A stretch of DNA of 12,477 nt, from UHGV virus genome UHGV-0072520. The stretch is one strand, 5' to 3'. Positions within the stretch are counted from its first letter, which is position 1; each line of letters starts with the position of its first letter. A program made the translations under genes and the position numbers. Below, in pieces: positions 1 to 12,477 of this stretch. This stretch comes from a virus. The notes below the pieces were generated by a model that was not told the origin of the DNA, did not search any database, and was given only the letters and a program-made list of their open reading frames with translations.

Positions 1-49
1 AGACTTGGATGATAGACTTCATGCCTTTGATTATTAGCTGATAGAAGAA

Positions 50-412
50 ATGTTAAAGCTATTTGCAAAGTACACCTCGATTGGTGTGCTGAACACACTT
101 ATACACTGGGTGGTTTTTGGTGTATGTATTTATGCCGCGCATACAAATCAGGCTCTGGCAAACTTCGCAGGTTTCATAGTAGCTGTGAGCTTTAGCTTCT
201 TCGCGAATGCAAGATTCACATTCAAAGCATCGACTACAACGATGCGCTACATGTTATACGTGGGATTCATGGGAACCTTGAGTGTTGTCGTCGGGTGGGC
301 TGCTGATAGATGTGCACTTCCCCCAATGGTCACCCTTATCACTTTCTCCGCCATCAGCCTGGTGTGCGGTTTCGTATATTCAAAGTTCATTGTCTTTAGG
401 GATGCGAAATGA
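50..412 (+). CDS. gtrA: GtrA, bactoprenol-linked glucose translocase (flippase), small polytopic membrane protein
   Basis: 120-aa hydrophobic ORF; N- and C-terminal sequence ([24 protein letters not shown] ... [13 protein letters not shown]) recognised as GtrA of serotype-converting Shigella/E. coli phages. Its stop overlaps the next start (ATGA at 409-412), indicating translational coupling. Confidence 0.88.
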
Positions 413-1335
413 AGATATCTCTTGTAGTTCCTGTCTTCAATGAAGAAGAAGCGATACCAATTTTTTATAAAACGGTACGTGAATTCGAAGAGTTGAAGCC
501 ATATGAGGTGGAAATTGTTTTCATAAATGACGGCAGCAAAGACTCTACAGAGTCAATAATTAACGCTCTGGCTGTTTCTGATCCGCTAGTTGTTCCGCTG
601 TCATTTACCAGAAACTTTGGTAAAGAACCTGCGCTGTTCGCTGGTCTTGATCACGCAACTGGTGAGGCGATTATCCCGATTGACGTTGACTTACAGGATC
701 CAATAGAAGTTATTCCTCACCTGATTGAGAAATGGCAACAAGGTGCGGACATGGTTCTGGCTAAACGCTCTGACCGCTCTACTGATGGTCGATTGAAGCG
801 CAAAACAGCTGAGTGGTTCTATAAGCTACATAATAAAATAAGCAATCCGCAAATTGAGGAGAACGTCGGAGACTTCCGTCTGATGTCTCGTGAAGTAGTT
901 GAAAATATCAAGCTTTTACCCGAGCGTAATCTGTTCATGAAAGGTGTGCTTAGCTGGGTTGGCGGCCGTACTGATGTTGTCGAATATGCACGCGCTGAGC
1001 GTGTTGCTGGTAGCACTAAATTCAACGGATGGAAGTTGTGGAATTTGGCACTTGAAGGAATAACCAGCTTCTCTACATTCCCATTACGCATCTGGACTTA
1101 CATCGGCCTTCTCGTTGCTGGAGTTTCGTTCCTTTACGGAGCTTGGATGATTATTGACACACTTGCATTTGGTAATGCTGTCAGAGGCTATCCTTCCCTT
1201 CTCGTTTCCATATTATTCCTTGGTGGAATTCAGCTAATCGGCATTGGTGTTTTAGGGGAATATATTGGAAGAATTTATGTAGAAGCAAAACATCGCCCAA
1301 GATATTTAATTAAAAAGGAAAAACATGAAAAATAA
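409..1335 (+). CDS. gtrB: GtrB, bactoprenol glucosyltransferase (GT2 family)
   Basis: 308-aa ORF beginning [20 protein letters not shown] with FINDGSKD and DVDLQDP motifs typical of GT2 undecaprenyl-phosphate glucosyltransferases, plus C-terminal transmembrane segments; directly follows gtrA. Confidence 0.9.
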
Positions 1336-2629
1336 TAACACACATATAATGATAATCATATATGCTTTAGTTATATGCATGCTTACATCAAATGTTTTTA
1401 TGATTAATACTAGTGATTTTTACAGATCGGTATTTCCTTTCATAGGTGAAATAAATACATTTGATGGAAATCTAACACTAAATTATGAATTAAAAAAAGA
1501 TTTTTTGAGTGTTTTCTCCTATGATTACATTAGCTCTTATAGTTACATCTTATATATTTATGCTTATATTATTTCTTTCTTTACAAATTATTTAGATTTG
1601 AGATTGCTATCAAGTATTCTTAAGATTATTTTTATAATAACATTATACTCATTATTTAGAAATATCACCAAGGAAAATGGCGCTAAATTTTTGGCGATAT
1701 TTTTCATAATCGCTCTCCCTATGCTATCAACCTCAAACCTAGCATTCTTCTCATCTTTTTATCAAGAGCAAATAGTAATCATAGCATTACCAATAGTCTC
1801 TTTATTTATAAGCGGCAATAATAAAAAAGATATACTCATTACTTTCATAGCTGCCACCCTCATAGCTTGCTCAAAGAGCCAGTTCTTTTACCTTCCGTTA
1901 ATAATAGCAATAGCTTATGGCATATTTAATCGAGATATGTTTAAGTTTAAAATTTTATTAACAGTTTTATCAATGTCGCTTTCTTTAATGTGCATTTGGG
2001 GTTCCTCTGGTGCGGCAGCATTTAATAAATACCATGCAAATTATTTTGGTATATATGAATATGCAAAAATCAATAATATTGAGATCGAACAAAACGTAGA
2101 CCAAAAATGCATTGGCGTAGATGCGTGGGGAAATAAATTTAATCTAGAACATGGAGCTATACAAACAACTTTAGGTGGCGATTGTTTTGGTAGAAATACT
2201 TCTGCTGGTTTCGTCGATGTAATTAGATGGGTCGCTAAAAACCCCAGCATTATTTATAATCTTCCAGTTGATGCCGGGATTAAAACACAATATACTGAAA
2301 ATTATTTCCATGTATTTAATGGAATAAAATTAATACAGGGGAATACAGGGGCATTGTCATACTTAACTGAAGTCAAGGATTATTTATTTAAAGATCTTAG
2401 GTTTGTTATTTTATTCATTACAATGTTGTTATCAATCATCTTCATTAGAAAGAAACTCTCAATTTTACTCTTTACCGTATGCTCGTTTGGGACATCACAG
2501 TTATACGTCTCTTTTTTTGGCGAGGGTTACAGAGATTTAGACAAACATCTTTTCGGGATGAATTTCGCATTCGACTTAACTATATTTATCGTGATGTGTC
2601 TTTTAGTTAGATTAAAATTCAAAAAATAA
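1325..2629 (+). CDS. Type-specific O-antigen glucosyltransferase (GtrC-type), polytopic membrane protein; serotype specificity undetermined
   Basis: 434-aa highly hydrophobic ORF immediately after gtrAB, the canonical position of the type-specific gtr gene. Strikingly AT-rich compared with flanking DNA. Start overlaps the gtrB stop by 11 nt; an alternative in-frame ATG lies at 1349. Confidence 0.72.
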
Positions 2630-2660
2630 AATATTGCTGCGCCATGATTAACATGGCGCA
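2621..2660 (-). terminator. Intrinsic terminator between convergent gtrC and tailspike genes
   Basis: Perfect 9-bp inverted repeat tgcgccatg / catggcgca (2638-2646 and 2652-2660) with 5-nt loop attaa. The + strand A-run at 2621-2636 gives a U-tract for - strand transcripts just past the tailspike stop. May act weakly on + strand transcripts too. Confidence 0.5.
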
Positions 2661-2666
2661 AATTAC

Positions 2667-4628
2667 TCACCAGTCTGCTAAAACTATCGCCCCACGCATA
2701 AATGCACGGTAAAAAGGAGATTCCCCTGCAGGGAAGCTGAAATGGAGAACTGGTGCTTCCCCAACAGCGTAATAATCTTCCGGTTTGAATCCAAACATAA
2801 ACGTTTGGCTTGAAGAAAGAGTCACACTTGCAATATCTTGATAGCGAATACCGTCTTTGCTTTTACCCATAAGAAAAAGTCCGTTTATAGGATTCCCGCC
2901 ATTAAGATTGGATATCTCAAGCCAAGCCCCTACGCCCTTACTGTAGCTACTGCAAAGACATAGAGATGCATCAGAAGTTTTAAAAGCAACTCCACTGACA
3001 TCGACTCCTTGCTGGGTGGTTTCATGGTCCCCATCACCAGAGCCACTTAATATCCTAGTTGGCCATGCATTCTTCGTAATTGTCTGGTCACTTGAGCTTG
3101 GATCCGCAGGCATAACATCCTTAAGCAATTCCTGTAGTGGCCAATGTTTACCACTGCCGGCTCCACCAAATAGATAGGTCTTTGTTTTTAGCTGTCTTGG
3201 ATAAGACTTGGATGCTAGTTTAGTAACTAACTCTTGAAGTATTCGATTAGTGCGTATCCTGTCAGTAATACCTGGGTCAGCTTCACCATCCCATACAAAT
3301 GCACCAAAATTCCCATTGCCCGCAGCGCCAAATATTTCAGCGCCTCCAACTACCTGATCAATATCACCACTTATATTGCTTCCACTAAATAGAAACGCAC
3401 CAACTACAGGGATAACATTAGGAATTTCAGTCATTTTGGAAATTACACCAAAATCTAATCTCATTTTCACAAGATCGGCGTTAATTCTGGTTTGTAAATC
3501 TCCTGTTGCAGCAGTTGAATATGAGTTAACTAAAGCCAGATCATAATTTTTTGAATACCATTGATTGAACGGTCCGCCAGGAGGAAGTTGGCACACCATA
3601 AGCAATGTTTTGTTTGTAACACTACGAAGAGTTTCAATCTTTGCATCCTGATCTGCAACACTGATCCCTCTAGCGCCTGGCTCGTCATATACTGCATATG
3701 CTACAACCGCAGGATGAGTGTCTATGGATTTAACAAAACTTGGCAGATCAGATATAGCAAGCGGGTCTTGTTCGGTTCCGATAGAAACTTTTAGACCTGC
3801 TGTTAAAGCATTATCTAATAACTTAAACTTGTCGCCTTCATCATCTACAGAACCACTAAACCCCAAATAATGGTGGATACTATTAAATCCTAATTGCTTT
3901 ATAAATAACAACTCAGCCAAGTCATAAGCAGAGCTAACGTAACAAATTTTCACTTTTGCATCGAAAGATACATCTACTTCTGAAGTCGCTAATATTGATC
4001 CAAGATTGTAGCGAGTCGTGTTAATCTTAAAATTACCGATTAATTTCTGCCCCTTAGATTTCAGCTTTTTTGTGATTTTATACTCTTTGTCTTTGATTCC
4101 TACAACATCCTTCCCAGTATCAAATGCAGCCTGAATGGCGTCTGACCAATCATCATCAACAACAAGATTTGCATAATCTTCGATGTAAGCATATACATCA
4201 CTACGCTTATTAAGGTTGTCTATATCAGTCTGCTTTGCGGCCCCATTTACTAAATCCACACCACCAGGTGCAGCAAGCTCCTGTCTTAACTGATCAGGAT
4301 CGTACTTCAGCACATTAGGAAAATAGAATTGCTGTGCACCATACGCATCATAACCAGCCATAGAATGGCCTTGCACGGTAACGAATTTGGCAATCTGTCC
4401 GTTATATACAGGATAACCAGCAGCGTTAATGATGATTGGTTGAGAAACAGGAACGTGAGAGCCGTCTTCGTTCTCTATATAAACCTGAATCTGGTTTTCA
4501 GGATTTACCGGGTCCGTGTCAATTTTACCGATATAAATTTTGCCATTGGCTACGGCTTTAAAAGAACGCGCCATAGTGAAGAGTTGCGATGGCATTGATA
4601 CGATCACATTGGCTGTAATGTCTGTCAT
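2667..4628 (-). CDS. Tailspike protein: P22-type N-terminal head-binding domain, divergent C-terminal receptor-binding/depolymerase domain
   Basis: 653-aa ORF. The first ~115 aa ([13 protein letters not shown] ... [38 protein letters not shown] ... [13 protein letters not shown] ... NVLKYDPDQ) closely resemble the conserved head-binding domain of P22/Sf6/HK620 tailspikes as I recall them. The remainder is not recognisably the P22 endorhamnosidase. RBS GGAG lies 8 nt upstream of the ATG on the - strand. Confidence 0.85.
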
Positions 4629-4709: not shown

Positions 4710-4761
4710 TCGTTGCGTTGGTTATCTGTCAGTAGTTATGTACTGGCTGAAGGATTTGTAC

Positions 4762-4792
4762 AAAAAAACCACCTGACGGTGGGTTAATTTTT
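4762..4792. terminator. Putative bidirectional intrinsic terminator
   Basis: Stem ccacc / ggtgg (4769-4773 and 4778-4782) with loop tgac, flanked by an A7 run upstream (4762-4768) and ttaattttt downstream (4784-4792), so either strand gets a U-rich tail. Confidence 0.45.
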
Positions 4793-4810
4793 GCATTTAC
4801 CTGGGCCATA

Positions 4811-4839
4811 TTGACTACTTATAAAATGAGATCAATATT
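4811..4839 (+). promoter_or_regulatory. Candidate sigma70 promoter for the small + strand gene
   Basis: TTGACT (4811-4816), 17-nt spacer, AATATT (4834-4839); the -35 matches consensus at 5 of 6 positions and the -10 at 4 of 6. Lies about 35 nt upstream of the ATG at 4876. By-eye match only. Confidence 0.3.
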
Positions 4840-4875
4840 TAATCGCCCAATAATGGGTGTATGTTGAGGTATATC

Positions 4876-5055
4876 ATGGCGAAAAAACCAGGTGAAAACA
4901 CAGGAAAAAACGGCGGAATATACCAAGAAGTTGGCCCACGCGGCGGTAAGAAAGACAATTTTGCCACCGTCAAGGACAACGAAAGGCTTCCACCAACAAC
5001 AAAGCCAGGTCATGGCTGGGTATTGGATAAGCGAACTCCAGACAGCAAAAAGTAA
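4876..5055 (+). CDS. Small YjzC-like protein (function unknown)
   Basis: 59-aa ORF MAKKPGENTGKNGGIYQEVGPRGG ... LPPTTKPGHGWVLDKRTP. The G-x-Y-x-E-V-G ... W ... KRTP pattern resembles the YjzC-like small-protein family as I recall it. GAGG RBS 5 nt upstream of the ATG at 4876 (the ORF track's upstream ATG at 4861 lacks an RBS). A terminator follows. Confidence 0.5.
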   Translation: MAKKPGENTGKNGGIYQEVGPRGGKKDNFATVKDNERLPPTTKPGHGWVLDKRTPDSKK

Positions 5056-5061
5056 TAATCA

Positions 5062-5084
5062 AGCCGGGTCACTCCGGCTTTTTG
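5062..5084 (+). terminator. Intrinsic terminator after the YjzC-like gene
   Basis: Stem agccgg / ccggct (5062-5067 and 5074-5079) with loop gtcact, followed by a T5 run. It overlaps the 3' end of the convergent - strand gene, so it may serve both. Confidence 0.55.
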
Positions 5085-5434
5085 ATATGTCGCTCGCAGA
5101 ACTCAACAAGCCTGCTCATTAAGTAGCAGTAAGTCTCGTTGGCTCTTCCTGGTTCAACATCAACACCTACCCTTGAGCAGATATCGAATGCCATGTGAGC
5201 GCACTCATGGGCAATAGTAGATAGTTTGCCATTGAACACGCCTATCACATGCAAAACACCATTCTCGCTACTCATTGTATGAGACGCTCCGTTGGCGTCC
5301 GAGTCATGCACGTCAACGCCAAGTTTTTGATGCAGGCGTTGCCATTCTGGAAAGTCTCTACAAAACACAATTGTACCGCTCTCAAAGAGCGGAACGAGCA
5401 TCTTTGGTACGTTTCCAATGTTAACTTTTTTCAT
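5069..5434 (-). CDS. Hypothetical protein with HExxH zinc-metallopeptidase-like motif
   Basis: 121-aa ORF containing IAHECAHMAFD (H-E-x-x-H) followed by several Cys/His residues (DICS, YCY, FCERH) that could complete a metal site. AGGA RBS 4 nt upstream of the ATG on the - strand. No family assignment possible without a search. Confidence 0.55.
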   Translation of the reverse strand: MKKVNIGNVPKMLVPLFESGTIVFCRDFPEWQRLHQKLGVDVHDSDANGASHTMSSENGVLHVIGVFNGKLSTIAHECAHMAFDICSRVGVDVEPGRANETYCYLMSRLVEFCERHIKKPE

Positions 5435-5468
5435 GGTATCCTGCGCAAAACTAAGGAGAGTTAATTAT

Positions 5469-5954
5469 ATGAAAAAACCACTGTTAATTATCCCGCTTCT
5501 GCTGGCTGGGTGCGCAAAAGTAAGCGACTATCAGGCAAGTTGCGAGCAACGCTATCCAAAGCTTAGCGATATGGCTAATTGCCTTGATGCCAGCTTGAAG
5601 AACGACTCTCGCATGGCATCAGCACCAACACCTAAGCTGTATGTCCTTGCTGCGAAGATGCTCGGGCAAGGTGTCGATGAAGGCAAGATAAGTGACACAC
5701 AGGCAAGACTTGAACTTCAGAATCTTTATGTTCAATTACAAAGCCAAGAACAAGCACAACAAATAGCACAAAGCCAAGCATTCCAGCAGGCTTTATTGAA
5801 TTATCAGGCTGTAAACACAATGCAAGCGATCGAGCAAAAAGCGCGCCAGCCTGTTATAACTCAACCTTACCCAACACGCGTTGACACATATACAAACTGC
5901 AATTCAGGATTTGGAAACACGGTAACATGCAACAGTAGCAGTAATATCAGGTAG
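5469..5954 (+). CDS. Prophage-encoded lipoprotein, predicted outer-membrane localisation
   Basis: N-terminus MKKPLLIIPLLLAGC has a classic signal peptide plus LAGC lipobox, and Ala at +2 argues against inner-membrane retention. GGAG RBS about 10 nt upstream of the ATG at 5469 (the ORF-track start at 5418 adds an unlikely extension with no RBS). Gln-rich predicted helical middle; 161 aa. Confidence 0.7.
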   Translation: MKKPLLIIPLLLAGCAKVSDYQASCEQRYPKLSDMANCLDASLKNDSRMASAPTPKLYVLAAKMLGQGVDEGKISDTQARLELQNLYVQLQSQEQAQQIAQSQAFQQALLNYQAVNTMQAIEQKARQPVITQPYPTRVDTYTNCNSGFGNTVTCNSSSNIR

Positions 5955-5968
5955 TTACATCTTATCTT

Positions 5969-7816
5969 TTATTGCTGTTCTGCTGTAATTTGGCTTGAAA
6001 GTATAGGGCGTATCGCATTTGCAGCATTATTTAGCGCTCTTTCATAGGCTGGTGTTCCTGCTTTGGTGTTTGCCAAACGTAAGAGAGCATTCCTTGCTGC
6101 TTTTGACTCATACAAGCGCATCATTGCACCGAAACCAGCCTCAAGCCCCATTGATACGCCAAGAGTCGCAGTTGCGCCAATCGTCCTTATCCTGTTGGCT
6201 TGCGATTGCCCCGTCTGAGTTACTACATTTGCGGTGTCTGACCTTGCTGTTTGCTGTAGAACTTCATGAAGAGAATCAAGCTCTTTCATGTGCTTTCCAG
6301 AAAAAATAGTGTTGTAAATTTCACCGCCTGACTGAGATTTCAGCTTATTAACTTCAGTGATGAACTTGGCTGGAGAGTCCCCGGCCTTTTCCGCTATTTT
6401 GCTGACGTAAGCTGCACGCATAGCATCTTTCCCCTTATCATCCAGTGCGCTCCAGATTCGTTTCACGTCAGATGGTTTTCTGCTTAATACAACGGTATTT
6501 ATAAGTTCAGGACTGGCTTCACTGCTTGCCTTGTTGAGCTTGTTGGCAATGTTTTTATTAAGCACCTTATTATAAACGTTTGCATAATCGGAATTTGCTT
6601 TAAGGTATTTTGCTGCGTCTGATGCACCGAGGTTTTTAGCAACTGCGTTACGAAGGTCTTTTGACATTGCATTCTCTACCATATTGGTAGCTGCTTTTGC
6701 CTGGTTGGGGAAGACCATAGCATCTCCCTGAACATTAGATCTAAATGCTGTTCTGTGCTGACGCAAGAGATCAAACGTAACATCCAAATCAGTTGCAGGG
6801 TTTGCTAATTCTTCACGTAGGTTACGCAAGGATGTAAGCAGGCTTTGATTGGCAGACGTCCCAAGCCGTTCCTGTCTTGCGATCGCTGTATTCAGAGCAT
6901 TCATGGTATTTGTTGTATCAACTGCGGCATTACCCATTTTATTGGTGACGTCATTGATAACAGCGCCAGCGGCATCCTTCCGTCCCCTTAACGTGGTGGT
7001 CAGAGATTTCACCACATCATCAGGGTTGTACTCACCAAAACGGTCAAAATAATTACTTACCAGTTTACTACGCGTTGCATATTGCTCCGCTCGCTTTGAT
7101 CCTGTCCCGAGCAAAGCCCCCTCGGCATCCTGAGTAAGGCCGCGAGTGAAAGCATTTTTCGGTGGGATGACATCAGATGTCATTGGCGTCACACCCATTG
7201 ATTCTGAGGTGGCAATTTTTTTCGCTACTTCTGGCGCGATATCGCCTTTTATAGCCGTTATTCCACGCCCTATTCCCTTTGCTGCTGCGGAAAGAACACC
7301 CTGAGCGGCAAGGTTAACTCCGGCATTTTTAGCTGCATTTTGTGCGAAATCGCCTTTCTGATTTGCGGCCTCTGCCAGTGAGCCAATAGCCATGCTTCCT
7401 GCCGTTCCAACTCCTGGAACTAAATACCCGCCAATTGTTTCTCCAGCTTGCGCATAAGGGTCTGTCGGTCGATCGACAGGGCGATAAACATCATCCAAAA
7501 CCTTGGGGCCACCAAGCCCCTGGCTGATTGCATTAATCAGACTTGCGCCACCCTGCAATACGTCAAATGGTATGTTTACCAGACCACGACCAGCCTGTTC
7601 TGCAATTTGCCCTGCACTTTGACCACCAGTGAGCCAATCGCCAGCTTGTTGCATCAATGATGGTTCTTCCCGTGTTGGTGCATTATTGGCCTGATTAACT
7701 GTTTGTTGCTGAACAGCCTGACCAGCAAAATACTCATCAATGGCGGTGCCAATATCTTCGGTGCTCGTACCATCAGGAAAGGTAAATGTCTTACCGTTTG
7801 CAGTTACTTTCATCAT
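5969..7816 (-). CDS. Ejection (DNA-transfer/injection) protein, P22 gp16-like
   Basis: 615-aa Ala/Gly/Gln-rich ORF without obvious enzymatic motifs, upstream of and co-oriented with the tailspike, matching the position and approximate size of P22 gene 16. Start overlaps the upstream stop (ATGA at 7813-7816). Assignment is by synteny and composition, not verified homology. Confidence 0.6.
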
Positions 7817-8805
7817 TCCACCGTAAATTGAATGCCTGATTTTGAGGTATATGATCCGGATTGACTCTGCTGCTGTTGGGTATTTGTCGGTTGTTGGTTA
7901 TTGCTCTGTTGTTGACTATTTGCAGCACTTGAAACCACCAAAGCATCATAAACGCGACCAGACTGACCACGTAATGAGTTATATTGGCCCTGCATTTTTC
8001 GCATTTTTGTTTCAGTAGCAGCCTTGGAATCACCAGGCTGAGGCAGGTACATTTTGGAATACTCCTGCATCTCTGGCAGAGTAATTGCTGCACCTGTTTC
8101 TGGGCGCAAAATTGCATACAAGGCGTCTCTCGCATTTACCATATATTGCTGCTCCGCTGGTGATAGGCTTAAATTTGCAATAGTCCCATCACCAAGAGAG
8201 CGATTTATTAATGCAACTCGCTTAGGGTCAATGCTTTTACTAAGCTGATTCATTGAGTCCATTGAATCTTTTAATCGCAAAGCAAATCCTGCCGCCTTCT
8301 TGGAACCCTCATTAGCCTTATCTATGATGCTTTGCGCTTGTGGCAAACTAATTGGTTTAATGCCATCACCAGATATAGGTTGGTTTAGTTTTCCGGCTTC
8401 CTCGCTGCCATCGGTGTAATACTTAGTTACCGAGCCATCAGGATTGGTTTCAACCTTAAGTAATTTCTTAGCATTGGGATTAATTCCCGCCGCTGCCGCA
8501 AATGCCGCTGCACCATCTGGATCCGCCTTTAACATTTGCGCGTACTGATTGTAATTCTGCATTGCGACTGTTGGTGCATATGCTGACGTTAACGCATTTG
8601 CTCGGCTAATATCCTGCCCTCTCGCCTGAAGTGCCTCGCCAGCCTGATTGCTGCGGATTGTCTCTGCCAGTCTGCCTCGGTCAATCTCACGACCAGCCAT
8701 CTTGTCCTGAACAGCAAACGCCTTTTCTGGTCCAAGCGCACCGAGAGACATAGTAGTCAGCATGTGTGATAGCTGCTCTGGATTCTGGATACCTGTCTGA
8801 ATCAT
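7813..8805 (-). CDS. Ejection protein, P22 gp20-like, apparently missing its 5' end
   Basis: 330-aa ORF from the first ATG, but the frame stays open upstream to 8919 with no start codon, which suggests the N-terminal coding part was deleted. Translationally coupled to the gp16-like gene. Assignment is by synteny. Confidence 0.5.
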
Positions 8806-8835
8806 CCAGTCAGCATTAGCACCAACGCGATTTAA

Positions 8836-9192
8836 CCTGTCCTTGTTGTCAGTAATGAATTTACTGTAGGCTTCCGGTCCCTGAGAAAGAGCGACGTTAC
8901 CGTAATAGTCCCCTGTCGGTTAGGGAAGCTGCGTGTTGAGCTGGAAGCAACAGAGAACAACCTCATTGATAGTGAATGCCATGTTGCTGAACTGGAAGAA
9001 GCACTACGCGACAAGCAGGCGTTACTTGAAGCCTCAGAAAAGCGCATAGCAGAACAAAGCTCGATTGTTACAGCCGCTGAAAAACTGGTTCGCTGTAAAG
9101 GCCGCTATCACAGTGAGCAAAACTATCGTGCGCTGGCTGCATTGTTTGGCGTAACAGTGCCGGATTTACCACCACTGCAAGCAGATGATTAA
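8836..9192 (+). pseudogene. 3' fragment of an early-region gene (coiled-coil C-terminus), no start codon
   Basis: Open frame 8836-9189 with no ATG/GTG/TTG start. It encodes ...KLRVELEATENNLIDSECHVAELEEALRDKQALLEASEKRIAEQ...LFGVTVPDLPPLQADD and ends 10 nt before the next gene with operon-like spacing (AAGGA RBS at 9191-9195). Confidence 0.35.
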
Positions 9193-9202
9193 GGACTAAC
9201 CT

Positions 9203-9775
9203 ATGACCACTATTACCAAAGAGCGACTACTGACAATCAAGCAGTGGCGCGAAACATACGGACCTGGTAGCAACGTTGTACTGCCAGCAGAAGAAGCGGA
9301 AGAACTGGCACGAATTGCTCTGGCATCGCTGGAAGCAGAACCTGTAAGCCAAACTTACAACTTGCCACAAACGCACTTTGAACAGGTTGCTGACCTTTAC
9401 GAAATGCAATTTGATGACGGACGCACTTGTGCCTTTCATACTGATGCACAAAAGGCTGCGCAATGGCTTCGGGCATGCGACGGAAACAGGGTTCAGGAAT
9501 ACGTGAAACTGGAGCGACTGCAGAACGCGCTATCGGGCAACTCTCCGGTAATTCCGGATAGTTGGATAAGCTGTAGTGAGCGAATGCCGGAAAAGAATCA
9601 GAACGTGCTTATTTCGGTGAATTTCGATAGCTCTCTGGTTGAACCGCTAATATGCTCCGCACGCTATACCGGAAGCACCTTTCGGCGCGGAGATGCAACG
9701 ATTAAGCCGGGTAATGGTATTGAGCAAGCAACTCACTGGATTCCGCTACCGGAACCGCCGCAGGAGGCGAAATGA
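9203..9775 (+). CDS. DUF551-like phage early protein
   Basis: 190-aa ORF whose C-terminus (WISCSERMPEKNQNVLI ... ATHWIPLPEPP) matches the DUF551 signature common in lambdoid/P22-like early regions, as I recall it. AAGGA RBS 7 nt upstream. Confidence 0.68.
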   Translation: MTTITKERLLTIKQWRETYGPGSNVVLPAEEAEELARIALASLEAEPVSQTYNLPQTHFEQVADLYEMQFDDGRTCAFHTDAQKAAQWLRACDGNRVQEYVKLERLQNALSGNSPVIPDSWISCSERMPEKNQNVLISVNFDSSLVEPLICSARYTGSTFRRGDATIKPGNGIEQATHWIPLPEPPQEAK

Positions 9776-10032
9776 TGGATGTAAAAGAGAAGGTTTTGCA
9801 GGTGATGCGTTCCCGGGCTGCCCTGCAAGATAAAGCTCTCGGCGGGGAATATCCATTCAGAATGGCAACCTGGAATTTGCGGTTGGCAATGGAGAAGGAA
9901 TTTCCTGATGAAGAATGGCGTTCGGCAGATTTGCGCAAAATTCTTATGGAGATTGCTAAAGACGGAACAGTATCTAAAGATAACCATGCCAGCCGGATTG
10001 GTCAGGCGGTATGGAGACTGGAGGTGCGGTAA
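9772..10032 (+). CDS. Hypothetical small phage protein
   Basis: 86-aa ORF; start overlaps the upstream stop (ATGA at 9772-9775), indicating translational coupling within the early operon. Confidence 0.55.
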   Translation: MMDVKEKVLQVMRSRAALQDKALGGEYPFRMATWNLRLAMEKEFPDEEWRSADLRKILMEIAKDGTVSKDNHASRIGQAVWRLEVR

Positions 10033-10313
10033 TGGCTAACCTGCAACTTGCCGTCAAAGGTGAATACTTCGATGCCATGATTCGCGGAGATAAAACGGAA
10101 GAGTATCGCCTGTGTAATGACTACTGGAATAAGCGAATTATGTTCCGGGAATATGACCGCCTGATTATCACAAAGGGATATCCGAAGCGCGACGACTCCA
10201 GTCGCAGAATTGATGTTCCGTATGGAGGATATGAAGTGAAAACAATCACACACCCCCACTTCGGTGATAAGCCGGTAAAGGTATACGCGATAAAGGTGAA
10301 TATCAATTGCTAA
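10032..10313 (+). CDS. ASCH/PUA-like domain protein
   Basis: N-terminus MANLQLAVKGEYFDAMIRGDKTEEYRL resembles the ASCH-domain signature (compare E. coli YqfB ...FQDDILAGRKTITIRD). Start chosen at the ATG overlapping the upstream stop (TAATG) with GGAGGTG 7 nt upstream. The ORF-track start at 10011 lies inside the previous gene. Confidence 0.58.
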   Translation: MANLQLAVKGEYFDAMIRGDKTEEYRLCNDYWNKRIMFREYDRLIITKGYPKRDDSSRRIDVPYGGYEVKTITHPHFGDKPVKVYAIKVNINC

Positions 10314-10424
10314 ATTAGTGGCATAGCATAAAGATGCTTGCATTAATGAAGTGTGTATAATAACGCCTCATCAATTGTAAACTACTGAAATAGCAAAAAA
10401 TGCATATTAAAGAGGATTCGAAAA

Positions 10425-10616
10425 TTGAAAATGTTCATGCAAATAGACAGACGCATAGATCTTAATGGCAATTCATACTTAGTTAGATGCGAAGAGAGGC
10501 CTAACGGTGAGTGGCGTGTATATGATATTGACCGTAAGATCAATATCAGCACCATGAACAAAGACACTGCCTTTGATGAATGGAAAGCTGAAGCTAAAAA
10601 ACAACATAATTCGTAG
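10425..10616 (+). CDS. Hypothetical small protein
   Basis: 63-aa ORF. AGAGGA at 10411-10416 is well spaced for the TTG at 10425; ATGs at 10431 and 10437 are alternatives. Followed by a terminator. Confidence 0.42.
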   Translation: MKMFMQIDRRIDLNGNSYLVRCEERPNGEWRVYDIDRKINISTMNKDTAFDEWKAEAKKQHNS

Positions 10617-10658
10617 AATTACAAAAACCCTAACCAATTGATGGATTTCTTTTATCTG

Positions 10659-10683
10659 AACTCGCTACGGCGAGTTTTGTTTT
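10659..10683 (+). terminator. Intrinsic terminator
   Basis: 7-bp stem aactcgc / gcgagtt with loop tacg, followed by ttgtttt. Confidence 0.55.
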
Positions 10684-10695
10684 ATGGAGATGATT

Positions 10696-10995
10696 ATGGC
10701 CTGTTCAACATTCAACCCTCTAACGTTACAGAAATACCAGCCAGCCCCTGAAGATTTATGCTCACTGTGTGGCGGAAATCATGGTAAAGCCGCCATGATT
10801 GAATGTAAGGACAAAATCCACATTTGCCTTAATTGCGTTGATGTCCTCGTTGATATCAAAAATGAGAGAGAAGATAAAAAGCGTAGCGAGGCTGTTCGAG
10901 CCTTAGATTCATGGATGCGAGATGGGTATAGTGCCGCGCAAATTTATGACTTAGCAATATCAAAAGGCGAAATACCAGGAGTGCGCATCGAATAA
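10696..10995 (+). CDS. Cys-rich small protein, possible zinc-ribbon
   Basis: ORF with paired CxxC motifs (CSLCGG ... CLNC) separated by about 18 residues. Start chosen at the ATG at 10696 with GGAG 6 nt upstream; the ORF track begins at 10684. Confidence 0.5.
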   Translation: MACSTFNPLTLQKYQPAPEDLCSLCGGNHGKAAMIECKDKIHICLNCVDVLVDIKNEREDKKRSEAVRALDSWMRDGYSAAQIYDLAISKGEIPGVRIE

Positions 10996-11035
10996 GACGT
11001 AACCAATATTTGTATTGAAGAACTGAAAGAACACC

Positions 11036-11061
11036 AAGCCGCCTGATGGCGGTTTATTTTT
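11036..11061 (+). terminator. Intrinsic terminator
   Basis: Stem ccgcc / ggcgg (11039-11043 and 11048-11052) with loop tgat, extendable by A-T pairs, followed by tttattttt. Confidence 0.55.
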
Positions 11062-11076
11062 GCCTGGAGAATTAAG

Positions 11077-11268
11077 ATGACCGATACCAGCCTGATTCCT
11101 GAGAAAGAAGTGATGAACAAGCTCGGTGTTTCATCACGTCAGACAATCTGGAACTATACCAAACGGCACGGATTTCCGAAGCCAGTCAGAACCCACCCCA
11201 AATCATACCTTCGTGAAGCTGTTGAGGGGTGGATTCTTAACGGTGGCGTTAATCAGAAATGCTCCTGA
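11077..11268 (+). CDS. AlpA-family phage transcriptional regulator / putative excisionase (HTH)
   Basis: 63-aa ORF MTDTSLIPEKEVMNKLGVSSRQTIWNYTKRHGFPKPV..., typical of AlpA/Xis-like small HTH proteins next to P4-type integrases. GGAG RBS at 11065-11068. Confidence 0.75.
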   Translation: MTDTSLIPEKEVMNKLGVSSRQTIWNYTKRHGFPKPVRTHPKSYLREAVEGWILNGGVNQKCS

Positions 11269-12427
11269 TGTGCCAGAACAATTTATCAGCGTGAAGCTCA
11301 TACGCTTTGCGCTGAGCCTCTATCCAGTCGTGTTTATTGTATACGGACATTATCCCGCCAAGTTCATGACCGAGCATTCGCTCAGTAACATGAGGCTCGA
11401 CATTCATCTCGGACAGACGTGTAACAAGCGTTCTTCTGAAATCATGTGTTCGCCAGTAACCTATATCCATCCCTCCCCTTATTCTATTTACGAATCGGTT
11501 GGCTGCAGCGATGCTGATCGGTTTGTTTATGTCTTCTCCAGGGAAAAGAACATCATTGTACGTTGTCATGGCCTTTTCGAGGAAAGGCTTAATTTGTTCG
11601 AAGATTGGACGGCGGATAACATTACCCATCTTGCTATGCTCTTTCGGTACGGTCCATACGTTTTCCAGCAGGTCAAATTCTGTCTTTTTTGCCAGCCTAA
11701 GCTCTGAGAGCCTCGCCCCCCACATCATAAGCATCTGATGAAGTAGCTTATTTGACGTAGACGCACGGCTTCTTTCAATAGCAAGCCAAATCTTAGCCAG
11801 TTCGTGATACGACAGTACCCGATCCCCTACCTCAGCGCGGGAGCCGAAGTCCCTTGGTTGGATGCTCATAATTGCGCAACTATCTATCAACTGACGCCGC
11901 ATGCACCAACTTATTGCTGACCTTAGTTGACTTAGCACCTGCCTTGCTCGGCGTGGATTATCTCTTTCTTCTTCGGTAAGCAGGTCAACCCATTGCTTAA
12001 CCGTGATAGAAGATGCCGGACGATTAGGAAAGGCGTCATGCATGCGCTTCATAACCGTTGATCGGTAAAGTGCCTGGGTCTTTTCTCTGAGAGTTGTAGA
12101 GACGTAGTTGTCGAACCAGTAGTCGAGACACTGGGCGACCGTCATGGAGTTCTCCACCTTCTCTTCAAAATAAGTGCGTGGATCCGTTCCTGAGAAATAG
12201 AGCTTTCGCAAGTCAGCAGTGATCTGTCTGGCATCCTTCAAAGACAGGGATGGGTATCGACCAAGCCCAAGTCGATTAGGCTTGCCATGCCAGCGATAGC
12301 GGTACTGGAACTGGATGACCCCCTTCGGTGAAATTCGTACGCTGAGGCCATCGGCATCAGCCACTTCTTGTGGGCCCGAATATGGTTTACCATAAATAGT
12401 ACGCAGTTTTGTGTCGCTTATAGCCAT
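11249..12427 (-). CDS. int: Tyrosine site-specific integrase, P4-type (DUF4102-like N-terminal arm-binding domain)
   Basis: 392 aa. N-terminus (SDTKLR ... DGLSVRISPKG ... YRYRWHGK ... LGLGRYPSLSLKDAR) fits the P4-family integrase pattern. C-terminal catalytic residues are visible: HDFRRT (H-x-x-R) and the tyrosine in MSVYNKHDW. Confidence 0.92.
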   Translation of the reverse strand: MAISDTKLRTIYGKPYSGPQEVADADGLSVRISPKGVIQFQYRYRWHGKPNRLGLGRYPSLSLKDARQITADLRKLYFSGTDPRTYFEEKVENSMTVAQCLDYWFDNYVSTTLREKTQALYRSTVMKRMHDAFPNRPASSITVKQWVDLLTEEERDNPRRARQVLSQLRSAISWCMRRQLIDSCAIMSIQPRDFGSRAEVGDRVLSYHELAKIWLAIERSRASTSNKLLHQMLMMWGARLSELRLAKKTEFDLLENVWTVPKEHSKMGNVIRRPIFEQIKPFLEKAMTTYNDVLFPGEDINKPISIAAANRFVNRIRGGMDIGYWRTHDFRRTLVTRLSEMNVEPHVTERMLGHELGGIMSVYNKHDWIEAQRKAYELHADKLFWHIRSISD

Positions 12428-12435
12428 AAATAATA

Positions 12436-12477
12436 TTTGGTACGCTCAGAAATAATGGTTTGGTACACATCTGGTAC
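12436..12477. repeat. Three direct copies of TGGTAC just outside the integrase 5' end (possible arm-type sites)
   Basis: TTTGGTAC at 12436-12443 and 12459-12466, and TGGTAC at 12472-12477, all in direct orientation at the window edge. Confidence 0.25.

Follow-up and report, generated by a model that had tools for sequence, protein, structure and literature searches.

A compound deletion joint with a 25-nt capsid gene relic in what is very probably a defective P22-like prophage of Escherichia coli

The window, by which we mean the whole 12,477-nt stretch of DNA that was analysed, carries a 12.4-kb prophage remnant of Lederbergvirus (P22-like) type whose neighbour is sbcB. Within it two genes that have both lost their starts face each other across a short piece of a third gene, and the remaining genes are arranged around this point as follows:

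50-412, plus strand: gtrA (Pfam GtrA_DPMS_TM)
409-1335, plus strand: gtrB (Pfam Glycos_transf_2)
1325-2629, plus strand: gtrC-like gene, 434 aa
2667-4628, minus strand: tailspike with the P22 head-binding domain (Pfam Head_binding, E = 1.1e-65, residues 1-113)
about 4800-5954, mixed strands: small accessory region
5969-7816, minus strand: intact gp16-type DNA ejection/transfer protein, 615 aa (PHROG 770 'DNA transfer protein', E = 4.6e-280)
7813-8899, minus strand: 5'-truncated gene for a gp20-type ejection protein (Pfam Inj_translocase)
8898-8899: joint J1, dinucleotide TA
8898-8922, minus strand: capsid (coat) gene relic, 25 nt
8921-8922: joint J2, dinucleotide TA
8921-9192, plus strand: 3' fragment of an ead/Ea22-like gene, without a start codon
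9203-9775, plus strand: intact DUF551 gene (Pfam DUF551, E = 2.5e-20)
9772-10995, plus strand: three small PHROG-family genes (PHROG 2814, 625 and 3680)
11077-11268, plus strand: AlpA/excisionase-like gene (Pfam Phage_AlpA)
11249-12427, minus strand: tyrosine integrase (Pfam Arm-DNA-bind_3 and Phage_integrase)

Two features mark the element as P22-like: genes for gp16 and gp20 that are adjacent in P22 order, as seen with Pfam, PHROG and synteny with phage CUS-3 and the PK8217 prophage, and a tailspike with the P22 head-binding N-terminal domain. A Pfam Phage_P22_gp16 match is listed for gp16 in the gene table of the identical contig L111, and the DNA of this gene is 97% identical to the gp16 genes of other remnants. 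Apart from the 25-nt coat relic, no P22-type coat, portal or terminase gene turned up in the window in the ORF map or the domain searches; the element is a remnant, not a phage. Its left arm (1-4594) is 99.5% identical to the 160-11H1 element, which sits between dacD and sbcB, and its int end (10995-12477) is 99.7% identical to the same element. The integrase end adjoins sbcB both in ENA ERZ1745575 NODE_8 (L111), a 212-kb contig that is 100% identical to the window over the full window length, and in JGI 3300014523 (L009). Because sbcB adjoins the int end and both ends match the dacD-sbcB element of 160-11H1, we assign the remnant to the dacD/sbcB site; the dacD flank was observed only in relatives (160-11H1, with its 99.5% identical left arm, and other occupants of the site), not on the window's contig.

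Several properties of the outer genes deserve separate mention. The third gtr gene (1325-2629) gave a sub-threshold DUF2142 match in the Pfam scan and has a YfdI_N match in the L111 gene table, and the C-terminal two-thirds of the tailspike gave no Pfam match. The gene and this part of the tailspike share 99.5% identity with their counterparts in 160-11H1, where the gtr-tailspike module adjoins dacD, and are divergent from those of the other remnants, a pattern of sharing that may suggest a specific pairing of O-antigen modification with receptor. The small region at 4746-5954 contains a 64-aa ORF (PHROG 3202), another that encodes 121 aa and includes a HECAH motif (PHROG 1365; 5069-5434, minus strand), and the gene of a predicted lipoprotein of 178 aa (PHROG 6067; 5418-5954, plus strand); no match to ant, arc or mnt was found in this interval between tailspike and gp16, where relatives annotate them. 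Among the three small early-left genes, the PHROG 625 member has homologues annotated as ASCH domain-containing protein. In lambda and P22, int comes after xis on one strand, an arrangement from which this element differs: its integrase gene, on the minus strand, is convergent with the early-left genes and overlaps the 3' end of the AlpA/excisionase-like gene by 20 nt. Beside the integrase start the motif TTTGGTAC(A/G)C occurs twice (12436-12445 and 12459-12468; 0.04 copies expected), and in 160-11H1, where it was noted at L003 2632-2655 and 14671-14718, it is also found ~350-370 nt beyond the end of gtrA. These repeats are probably integrase-binding or att sequences, in which case the true left end of the prophage would lie outside the window.

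The two genes at the joint were read in the earlier note as start-less frames on opposite strands, and both readings are correct. The plus frame is open from 8836, after a TAA at 8833-8835, to the TAA at 9190-9192 and contains no gene start: canonical start codons do not appear before TTG at 9142 and GTG at 9157, which leaves room for 16 codons at most. The spacing before the DUF551 gene is operon-like, again as described, this gene starting at 9203, 10 nt after the stop, with an AAGGA motif ahead of it; it is the first complete gene of the early-left arm that was kept. The gp20-like frame on the minus strand continues upstream of its first ATG (8803-8805) without a stop as far as 8919; the TAA that then closes it, at 8920-8922, is part of the capsid relic. 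No ATG, GTG or TTG lies in this frame between the first ATG and the closing TAA, and no Shine-Dalgarno-like sequence is found upstream of the ATG at 8805.

Because protein and profile alignments show them too, the two truncations are independent of the reading of frames. The gp20 fragment keeps codons 131-491 of 491 and has lost the 130 N-terminal codons, the start codon and the ribosome-binding site: BLASTP aligns window residues 8-368 with residues 131-491 of PK8217 gp20 (357/361 identical, 99%), and the Pfam Inj_translocase match covers only profile positions 120-217 of 218. The plus-strand fragment consists of about the last 88-90 codons and the stop of an ead/Ea22-like early-left gene and shows full identity to residues 112-199 of its UMNF18 homologue (199 aa), for which PGAP gives the name ead/Ea22-like. 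Its score against Pfam Ead_Ea22 (PF13935) is 17.1 bits, the cut-off being 27, and covers only profile positions 99-137 of 139; the piece stems from a family member but does not itself qualify as one. The earlier note had named two observations that would speak against a scar, namely a continuous gene across this point in intact relatives and a flanking ORF that is complete with a non-canonical start. No intact relative shows such a gene, and neither fragment has a start codon.

To map the breakpoints, bases 8500-9300 were compared by megablast with 5,426 complete E. coli genomes. The matches split into gp20 genes, annotated 'DNA transfer protein' (8500-8899), and ead/Ea22-like plus DUF551 genes (8917-9300), with no genome spanning both. 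Alignment of each flank to intact relatives, run as had been proposed, placed the end of the gp20 arm at 8899 and the beginning of the Ea22 arm at about 8921. Homology to intact gp20 alleles of P22-like prophages and CUS-3 ends at base 8899 (...GAGCGACGTTA^; here and below a caret marks the break). Homology to Ea22 starts at 8921-8923, with 99.5% DNA identity across 8917-9300; the FG31-1 allele reads ...GCGCTAACGGTA^GGGAAGCTGCGTG, and the window matches it from the TA at 8921-8922 on. Between the two arms, 17-21 bases at the joint belonged to neither gp20 nor Ea22. Divergent alleles of the two neighbours were both rejected as their source: the native gp20 alleles in the compared loci all continue GC(C/T)CTCATGG past 8899 instead, and Ea22 alleles read ...CTAACGGT(A/T)G(G/T)GA(A/G)GCTG, without the filler, a blastn match to OkiPb01675 that reaches back to 8904 (84%) being a gapped, spurious extension.

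The filler at 8898-8922 (25 nt, TACCGTAATAGTCCCCTGTCGGTTA) is an exact match to the middle of the P22-type major capsid gene, 8900-8920 being the portion that is capsid only. It occurs without mismatch in the capsid gene of 160-11H1 (L003 9964-9988, CDS 9481-10734) and in the coat gene of CUS-3 (16880-16904, CDS 16397-17650), and with 24 of the 25 bases in the capsid gene of the intact PK8217 prophage; in IMG/VR, exact matches have capsid-gene flanks on both sides in all of the 100 listed. The chance expectation for a 25-mer is ~2e-9 across the 1.2 Mb of compared loci. The order gp20-capsid-Ea22 and the orientation are those of relatives (L003, L008 and CUS-3), and the relic, whose native reading is NRQGTITV, is out of frame here. 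Fusion of the late arm to the early arm, as claimed in the earlier note, is thus seen in the alignments, but not as a single clean fusion, the joint being compound with two breakpoints. Similarly, the meeting of two start-less ORFs over ~85 bp does signal a deletion scar but does not give its extent: the real joint, at 8898-8922, lies at the right edge of the interval reported before and reaches 2 nt past its end, and the two open frames overlap over 85 nt by coincidence, 8836-8899 being the antisense of genuine gp20 sequence.

Each end of the relic shares a single dinucleotide with its neighbour. At J1 (8898-8899) native gp20 reads ...GACGTTA^GCCC and native capsid ...CAGATA^CCGT, and the bases on either side of the TA mismatch; at J2 (8921-8922) native capsid reads ...TCGGTTA^TCAA and native Ea22 ...AACGGTA^GGGAAGCTG (FG31-1 allele), with mismatching flanks and a looser similarity of CGGTTA to CGGTA. 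These overlaps were read from the alleles of relatives, not from the true parental alleles. Of the two things that the junction was to be searched for, microhomology is present, though it amounts to 2 nt (TA) per joint, and an IS scar is not: no IS element, terminal inverted repeat or target-site duplication lies at the joint, and 8600-9250 is gp20, capsid and Ea22 homology throughout. No direct repeat of tens of bases connects the native sites, which have TA alone in common at each joint, and the flanking repeats found at the joint (9-19 nt) are at chance level.

In the intact E. coli PK8217 prophage and in phage CUS-3 the gp20 and Ea22 breakpoints lie ~27 kb apart. With CUS-3 as a ruler, the last base of gp20 homology is 12046, the relic occupies 16880-16904 and homology of Ea22 type sets in at 39055. 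The first gap, ~4.83 kb, comprises the 5' 390 nt of gp20, gp7, gp14, gp26, gp10, gp4 and the 3' part of coat; the second, ~22.15 kb, comprises the rest of coat, scaffold, portal, both terminase subunits, the lysis genes, Q, the nin region, the replication genes, cII/cro/cI (immC), N and the early-left genes as far as mid-Ea22. In total ~27 of ~40 kb are missing, and the gene content of CUS-3 and the PK8217 prophage bears out the earlier statement that head, lysis, replication and immunity genes had been removed. The arms are co-linear with an intact relative, the essential modules between them are gone and both genes at the joint are start-less, as expected of an internal deletion. We hold it very probable that the whole stretch is a defective P22-like prophage at dacD/sbcB of E. 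coli and that 8898-8922 is the joint left by the loss of ~27 kb from its centre.

P22-like remnants with different central deletions are present in at least five other E. coli lineages:

E1433 clone (L004), at dacD/sbcB: gp20' joined ~170 nt upstream of xis; IS100 in int
2-1 (L005), at dacD/sbcB: gp26' joined upstream of eag
160-11H1 (L003), at dacD/sbcB: tailspike'-gp10', and scaffold'-138-nt portal relic-early genes
FG31-1 (L006), at argW: gp20'-helicase'-N'
20AR0300 (L113), beside dsdX: in-frame gp20'-gp10' fusion, and gp4'-dsdX'

Since strains carry remnants with different central deletions at dacD/sbcB, decay at this site is recurrent. The tailspike-proximal end is kept in E1433, 2-1, 160-11H1 and FG31-1, all those where it was examined, and most of these keep gtrABC. 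Among 420 E. coli records with this gp20 type, 10 have gp20 truncated within the tested 301-nt interval. Short relics between joints are common, examples being a portal piece of 138 nt (L003 11141-11278) and pieces of helicase, N and ral (L006 11453-12238). In 20AR0300 (L113 1625-3211), where the 3' part of gp20 is fused to gp10, PGAP annotates an intact 528-aa 'packaged DNA stabilization protein'.

An origin of the joint other than deletion within one prophage has to be weighed, as does a function for what the joint left behind. We give next to no probability to an assembly chimera or mis-join. The joint is absent from the 5,426 complete E. coli genomes, and exact-pattern scans of GTDB representatives and JGI metagenome contigs for it were empty, which would suit a mis-join. 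Forms with J1 only or J2 only were likewise not found in complete E. coli genomes, GTDB representatives, JGI metagenome contigs or IMG/VR; because the metagenome scan missed a JGI contig that does bear the joint (Ga0169890_100379 of JGI 3300014523, L009), its negatives are weak evidence of absence. Searches with the truncated gp20 product (330 aa; two contigs) and with the tailspike (one contig) located the identical relic with both joints in three other public assemblies, from separate projects: Logan ERR526085 (100% identity across 2.5 kb), ENA ERZ1745575 (window wholly 100% identical, within the 212-kb contig) and JGI 3300014523 (20 mismatches and 1 gap over ~6.5 kb; 99.5-99.8% identity). 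Given its presence in three other assemblies, one of them ~0.4% diverged, the joint is inherited and not an assembly error; it predates some sequence divergence and is therefore a fixed feature of a lineage. Recombination between a P22-like element and a lambdoid prophage, whether resident or infecting, could also have brought gp20 and Ea22 together. The Ea22-DUF551 segment is indeed 96-99.5% identical to lambdoid prophages, Stx phages and even P1-like records, and in its early-left arm (9203-10995) the remnant departs from its closest relative, the 160-11H1 element, to which it is otherwise 99.5% identical. Yet early-left modules are generally mosaic among such phages, which we count against this reading, and both ends of the element would lie at one chromosomal site, with int beside sbcB and with int/xis 99.7% identical to other occupants of dacD/sbcB. 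The three pieces moreover keep the order and orientation that they have in an intact P22-like genome, and the joint has no extended homology that could drive homologous exchange, so that we consider an origin from two prophages very unlikely. Other phages may have exchanged DNA with the element, either before the deletion or since. It is, finally, extremely improbable that a shortened but functional gene has been kept by selection in either fragment, such as gp20 read from the ATG at 8805. The 330-aa ORF is intact and is called by gene finders, and gp16 and gp20' are kept in several independent remnants, but no Shine-Dalgarno-like sequence precedes that ATG, the late promoter and the Q-type antiterminator are deleted, and selection for the 330-aa form is argued against by other remnants in which gp20 is cut elsewhere or wholly gone.

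The remnants also show a regularity in where their deletions end, which we record as unexplained and not as a finding, the pattern having been noticed post hoc among about 7 joints. The gp20 cut, ...GACGTTA^, falls at the same base in the window lineage and in FG31-1, despite the different site (argW) and partner gene of the latter, and lies within a small hairpin, TTAGCC-ctcat-GGCTAA. The 9-mer TGTCGGTTA/TAACCGACA, which has only 2 occurrences in the CUS-3 genome, is found at three retained ends, each in a different gene: that of the capsid relic here, that of the FG31-1 helicase and that of an early-left ORF of E1433. The positions concerned are window 8893-8899 (gp20 cut) and 8914-8922 (9-mer), L006 11446-11463 and L004 8762-8780. 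Compared with the first reference alleles, four joints (J1 and J2 of the window, FG31-1 and E1433) have an exact TA overlap, and the retained end in 20AR0300 reads ...GGATA^. Such ends could have been made by a sequence-directed enzyme that cuts at TA within TGTCGGTTA or ACGTTA motifs rather than by random joining, candidates being a nuclease, a topoisomerase, a serine-recombinase-like activity on quasi-sites or a TA-targeting transposase. The four TA overlaps, the shared gp20 cut base and the 9-mer at three ends favour enzymatic cutting, as does a rough post hoc estimate of <1e-6 for two further coincidences. Set against it are the post hoc nature of the pattern and the ~7 joints behind it, joint JA of 160-11H1, which is without such an overlap, and the FG31-1 joint, where a different helicase allele leaves just a 6-nt microhomology of the usual sort, ACGTTA. 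The ends could be matched to no known recognition site, and the joint is free of any recombinase or IS element. TGTCGGTTA may bear some resemblance to resolvase half-sites or to the P22 pac site. A literature search on the 9-mer and on P22-like prophages at sbcB found nothing relevant, and a search of IMG/VR for remnants cut at the gp20 site or at the capsid or helicase 9-mer sites gave no new joints, its matches being unrelated chance matches or a helicase SNP allele, the one that gives FG31-1 its 6-nt microhomology. We regard sequence-directed cutting as unlikely. The broader proposition, that central deletions in P22-like prophages are non-random and repeated at TA within TGTCGGTTA/TAACCGACA and at gp20 ...GACGTTA^, strikes us as distinctly unlikely; were it true, a host or phage enzyme would cut or switch template there and drive the disarmament of prophages, the compound joint being one product. 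Should a large survey uphold the recurrence of end-points, this would point to prophages being inactivated along a directed route.

Under the internal deletion that we prefer, the product suggests that the losses would have come about by homology-independent (illegitimate) joining at the 2-nt TA overlaps. We call the joining homology-independent because the native partners share 2 nt only, an overlap barely above chance. Illegitimate recombination at short homologies is described for E. coli (PMC11372144). The joint could have been produced in a single complex event that involved two breaks or template switches, and two successive deletions would give the same product sequence. We lean slightly towards the single event, because two independent deletions could have left a piece of up to several kb and the relic measures 21-25 nt; a co-linear piece of that size would be more typical of serial template switching. 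The two microhomology joints and the short templated segment from the deleted interval are those of a template-switch product, a likeness that describes the product only.

As for its effect, we infer that the scar is functionally inert, because the fragments are start-less, the ATG at 8805 has no Shine-Dalgarno-like sequence and the regions of pL and the late promoter have been lost. The element would no longer be able to replicate, lyse or make particles, and it appears to keep intact gtrABC, which modify O-antigen, together with the tailspike, gp16, a few early-left genes and int/xis. The scar therein documents how a prophage of lysogenic conversion (gtrABC) turned into a fixed, non-inducible chromosomal island, and it accounts for two orphan ORFs that annotation pipelines would call genes. 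By virtue of the 25-nt capsid relic the joint is unique and can be used as a precise lineage marker, and it provides a clean example of a compound deletion joint in the decay of bacterial prophages. The scar is ordinary in kind and new only as an instance, its distinctive feature being the capsid relic.

The closest intact counterparts are phage CUS-3 (CP000711.1) and the PK8217 prophage, in which tailspike, immI region, gp16, gp20 ... coat ... early-left genes are ordered and oriented as in this element and the common pieces show 92-98% DNA identity. CUS-3 differs from this element in its integrase type, its int lying at the tailspike end and integrating at argW. Cryptic lambdoid and P22-like prophages of E. 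coli that arose by internal deletion are well known, an example being CPS-53/KpLE1 at argW of K-12. Like CPS-53/KpLE1, E1433, 2-1, 160-11H1, FG31-1 and 20AR0300, the element described here has kept its ends and lost the lytic, replication and immunity centre, and it likewise shows abutting truncated genes and shares integration sites with the remnants; the relic between its joints is much shorter than theirs, for example than the 138-nt portal piece of 160-11H1. The replication template-switch (MMBIR) model is said to have been framed by Hastings and colleagues in 2009 for human copy-number change. The joint resembles complex deletions of the MMBIR type in having two joints with 2-nt overlaps around a short co-linear segment from the deleted interval, and it differs in that the mechanism here is deduced from the product, to which two simple deletions would give an equal sequence.
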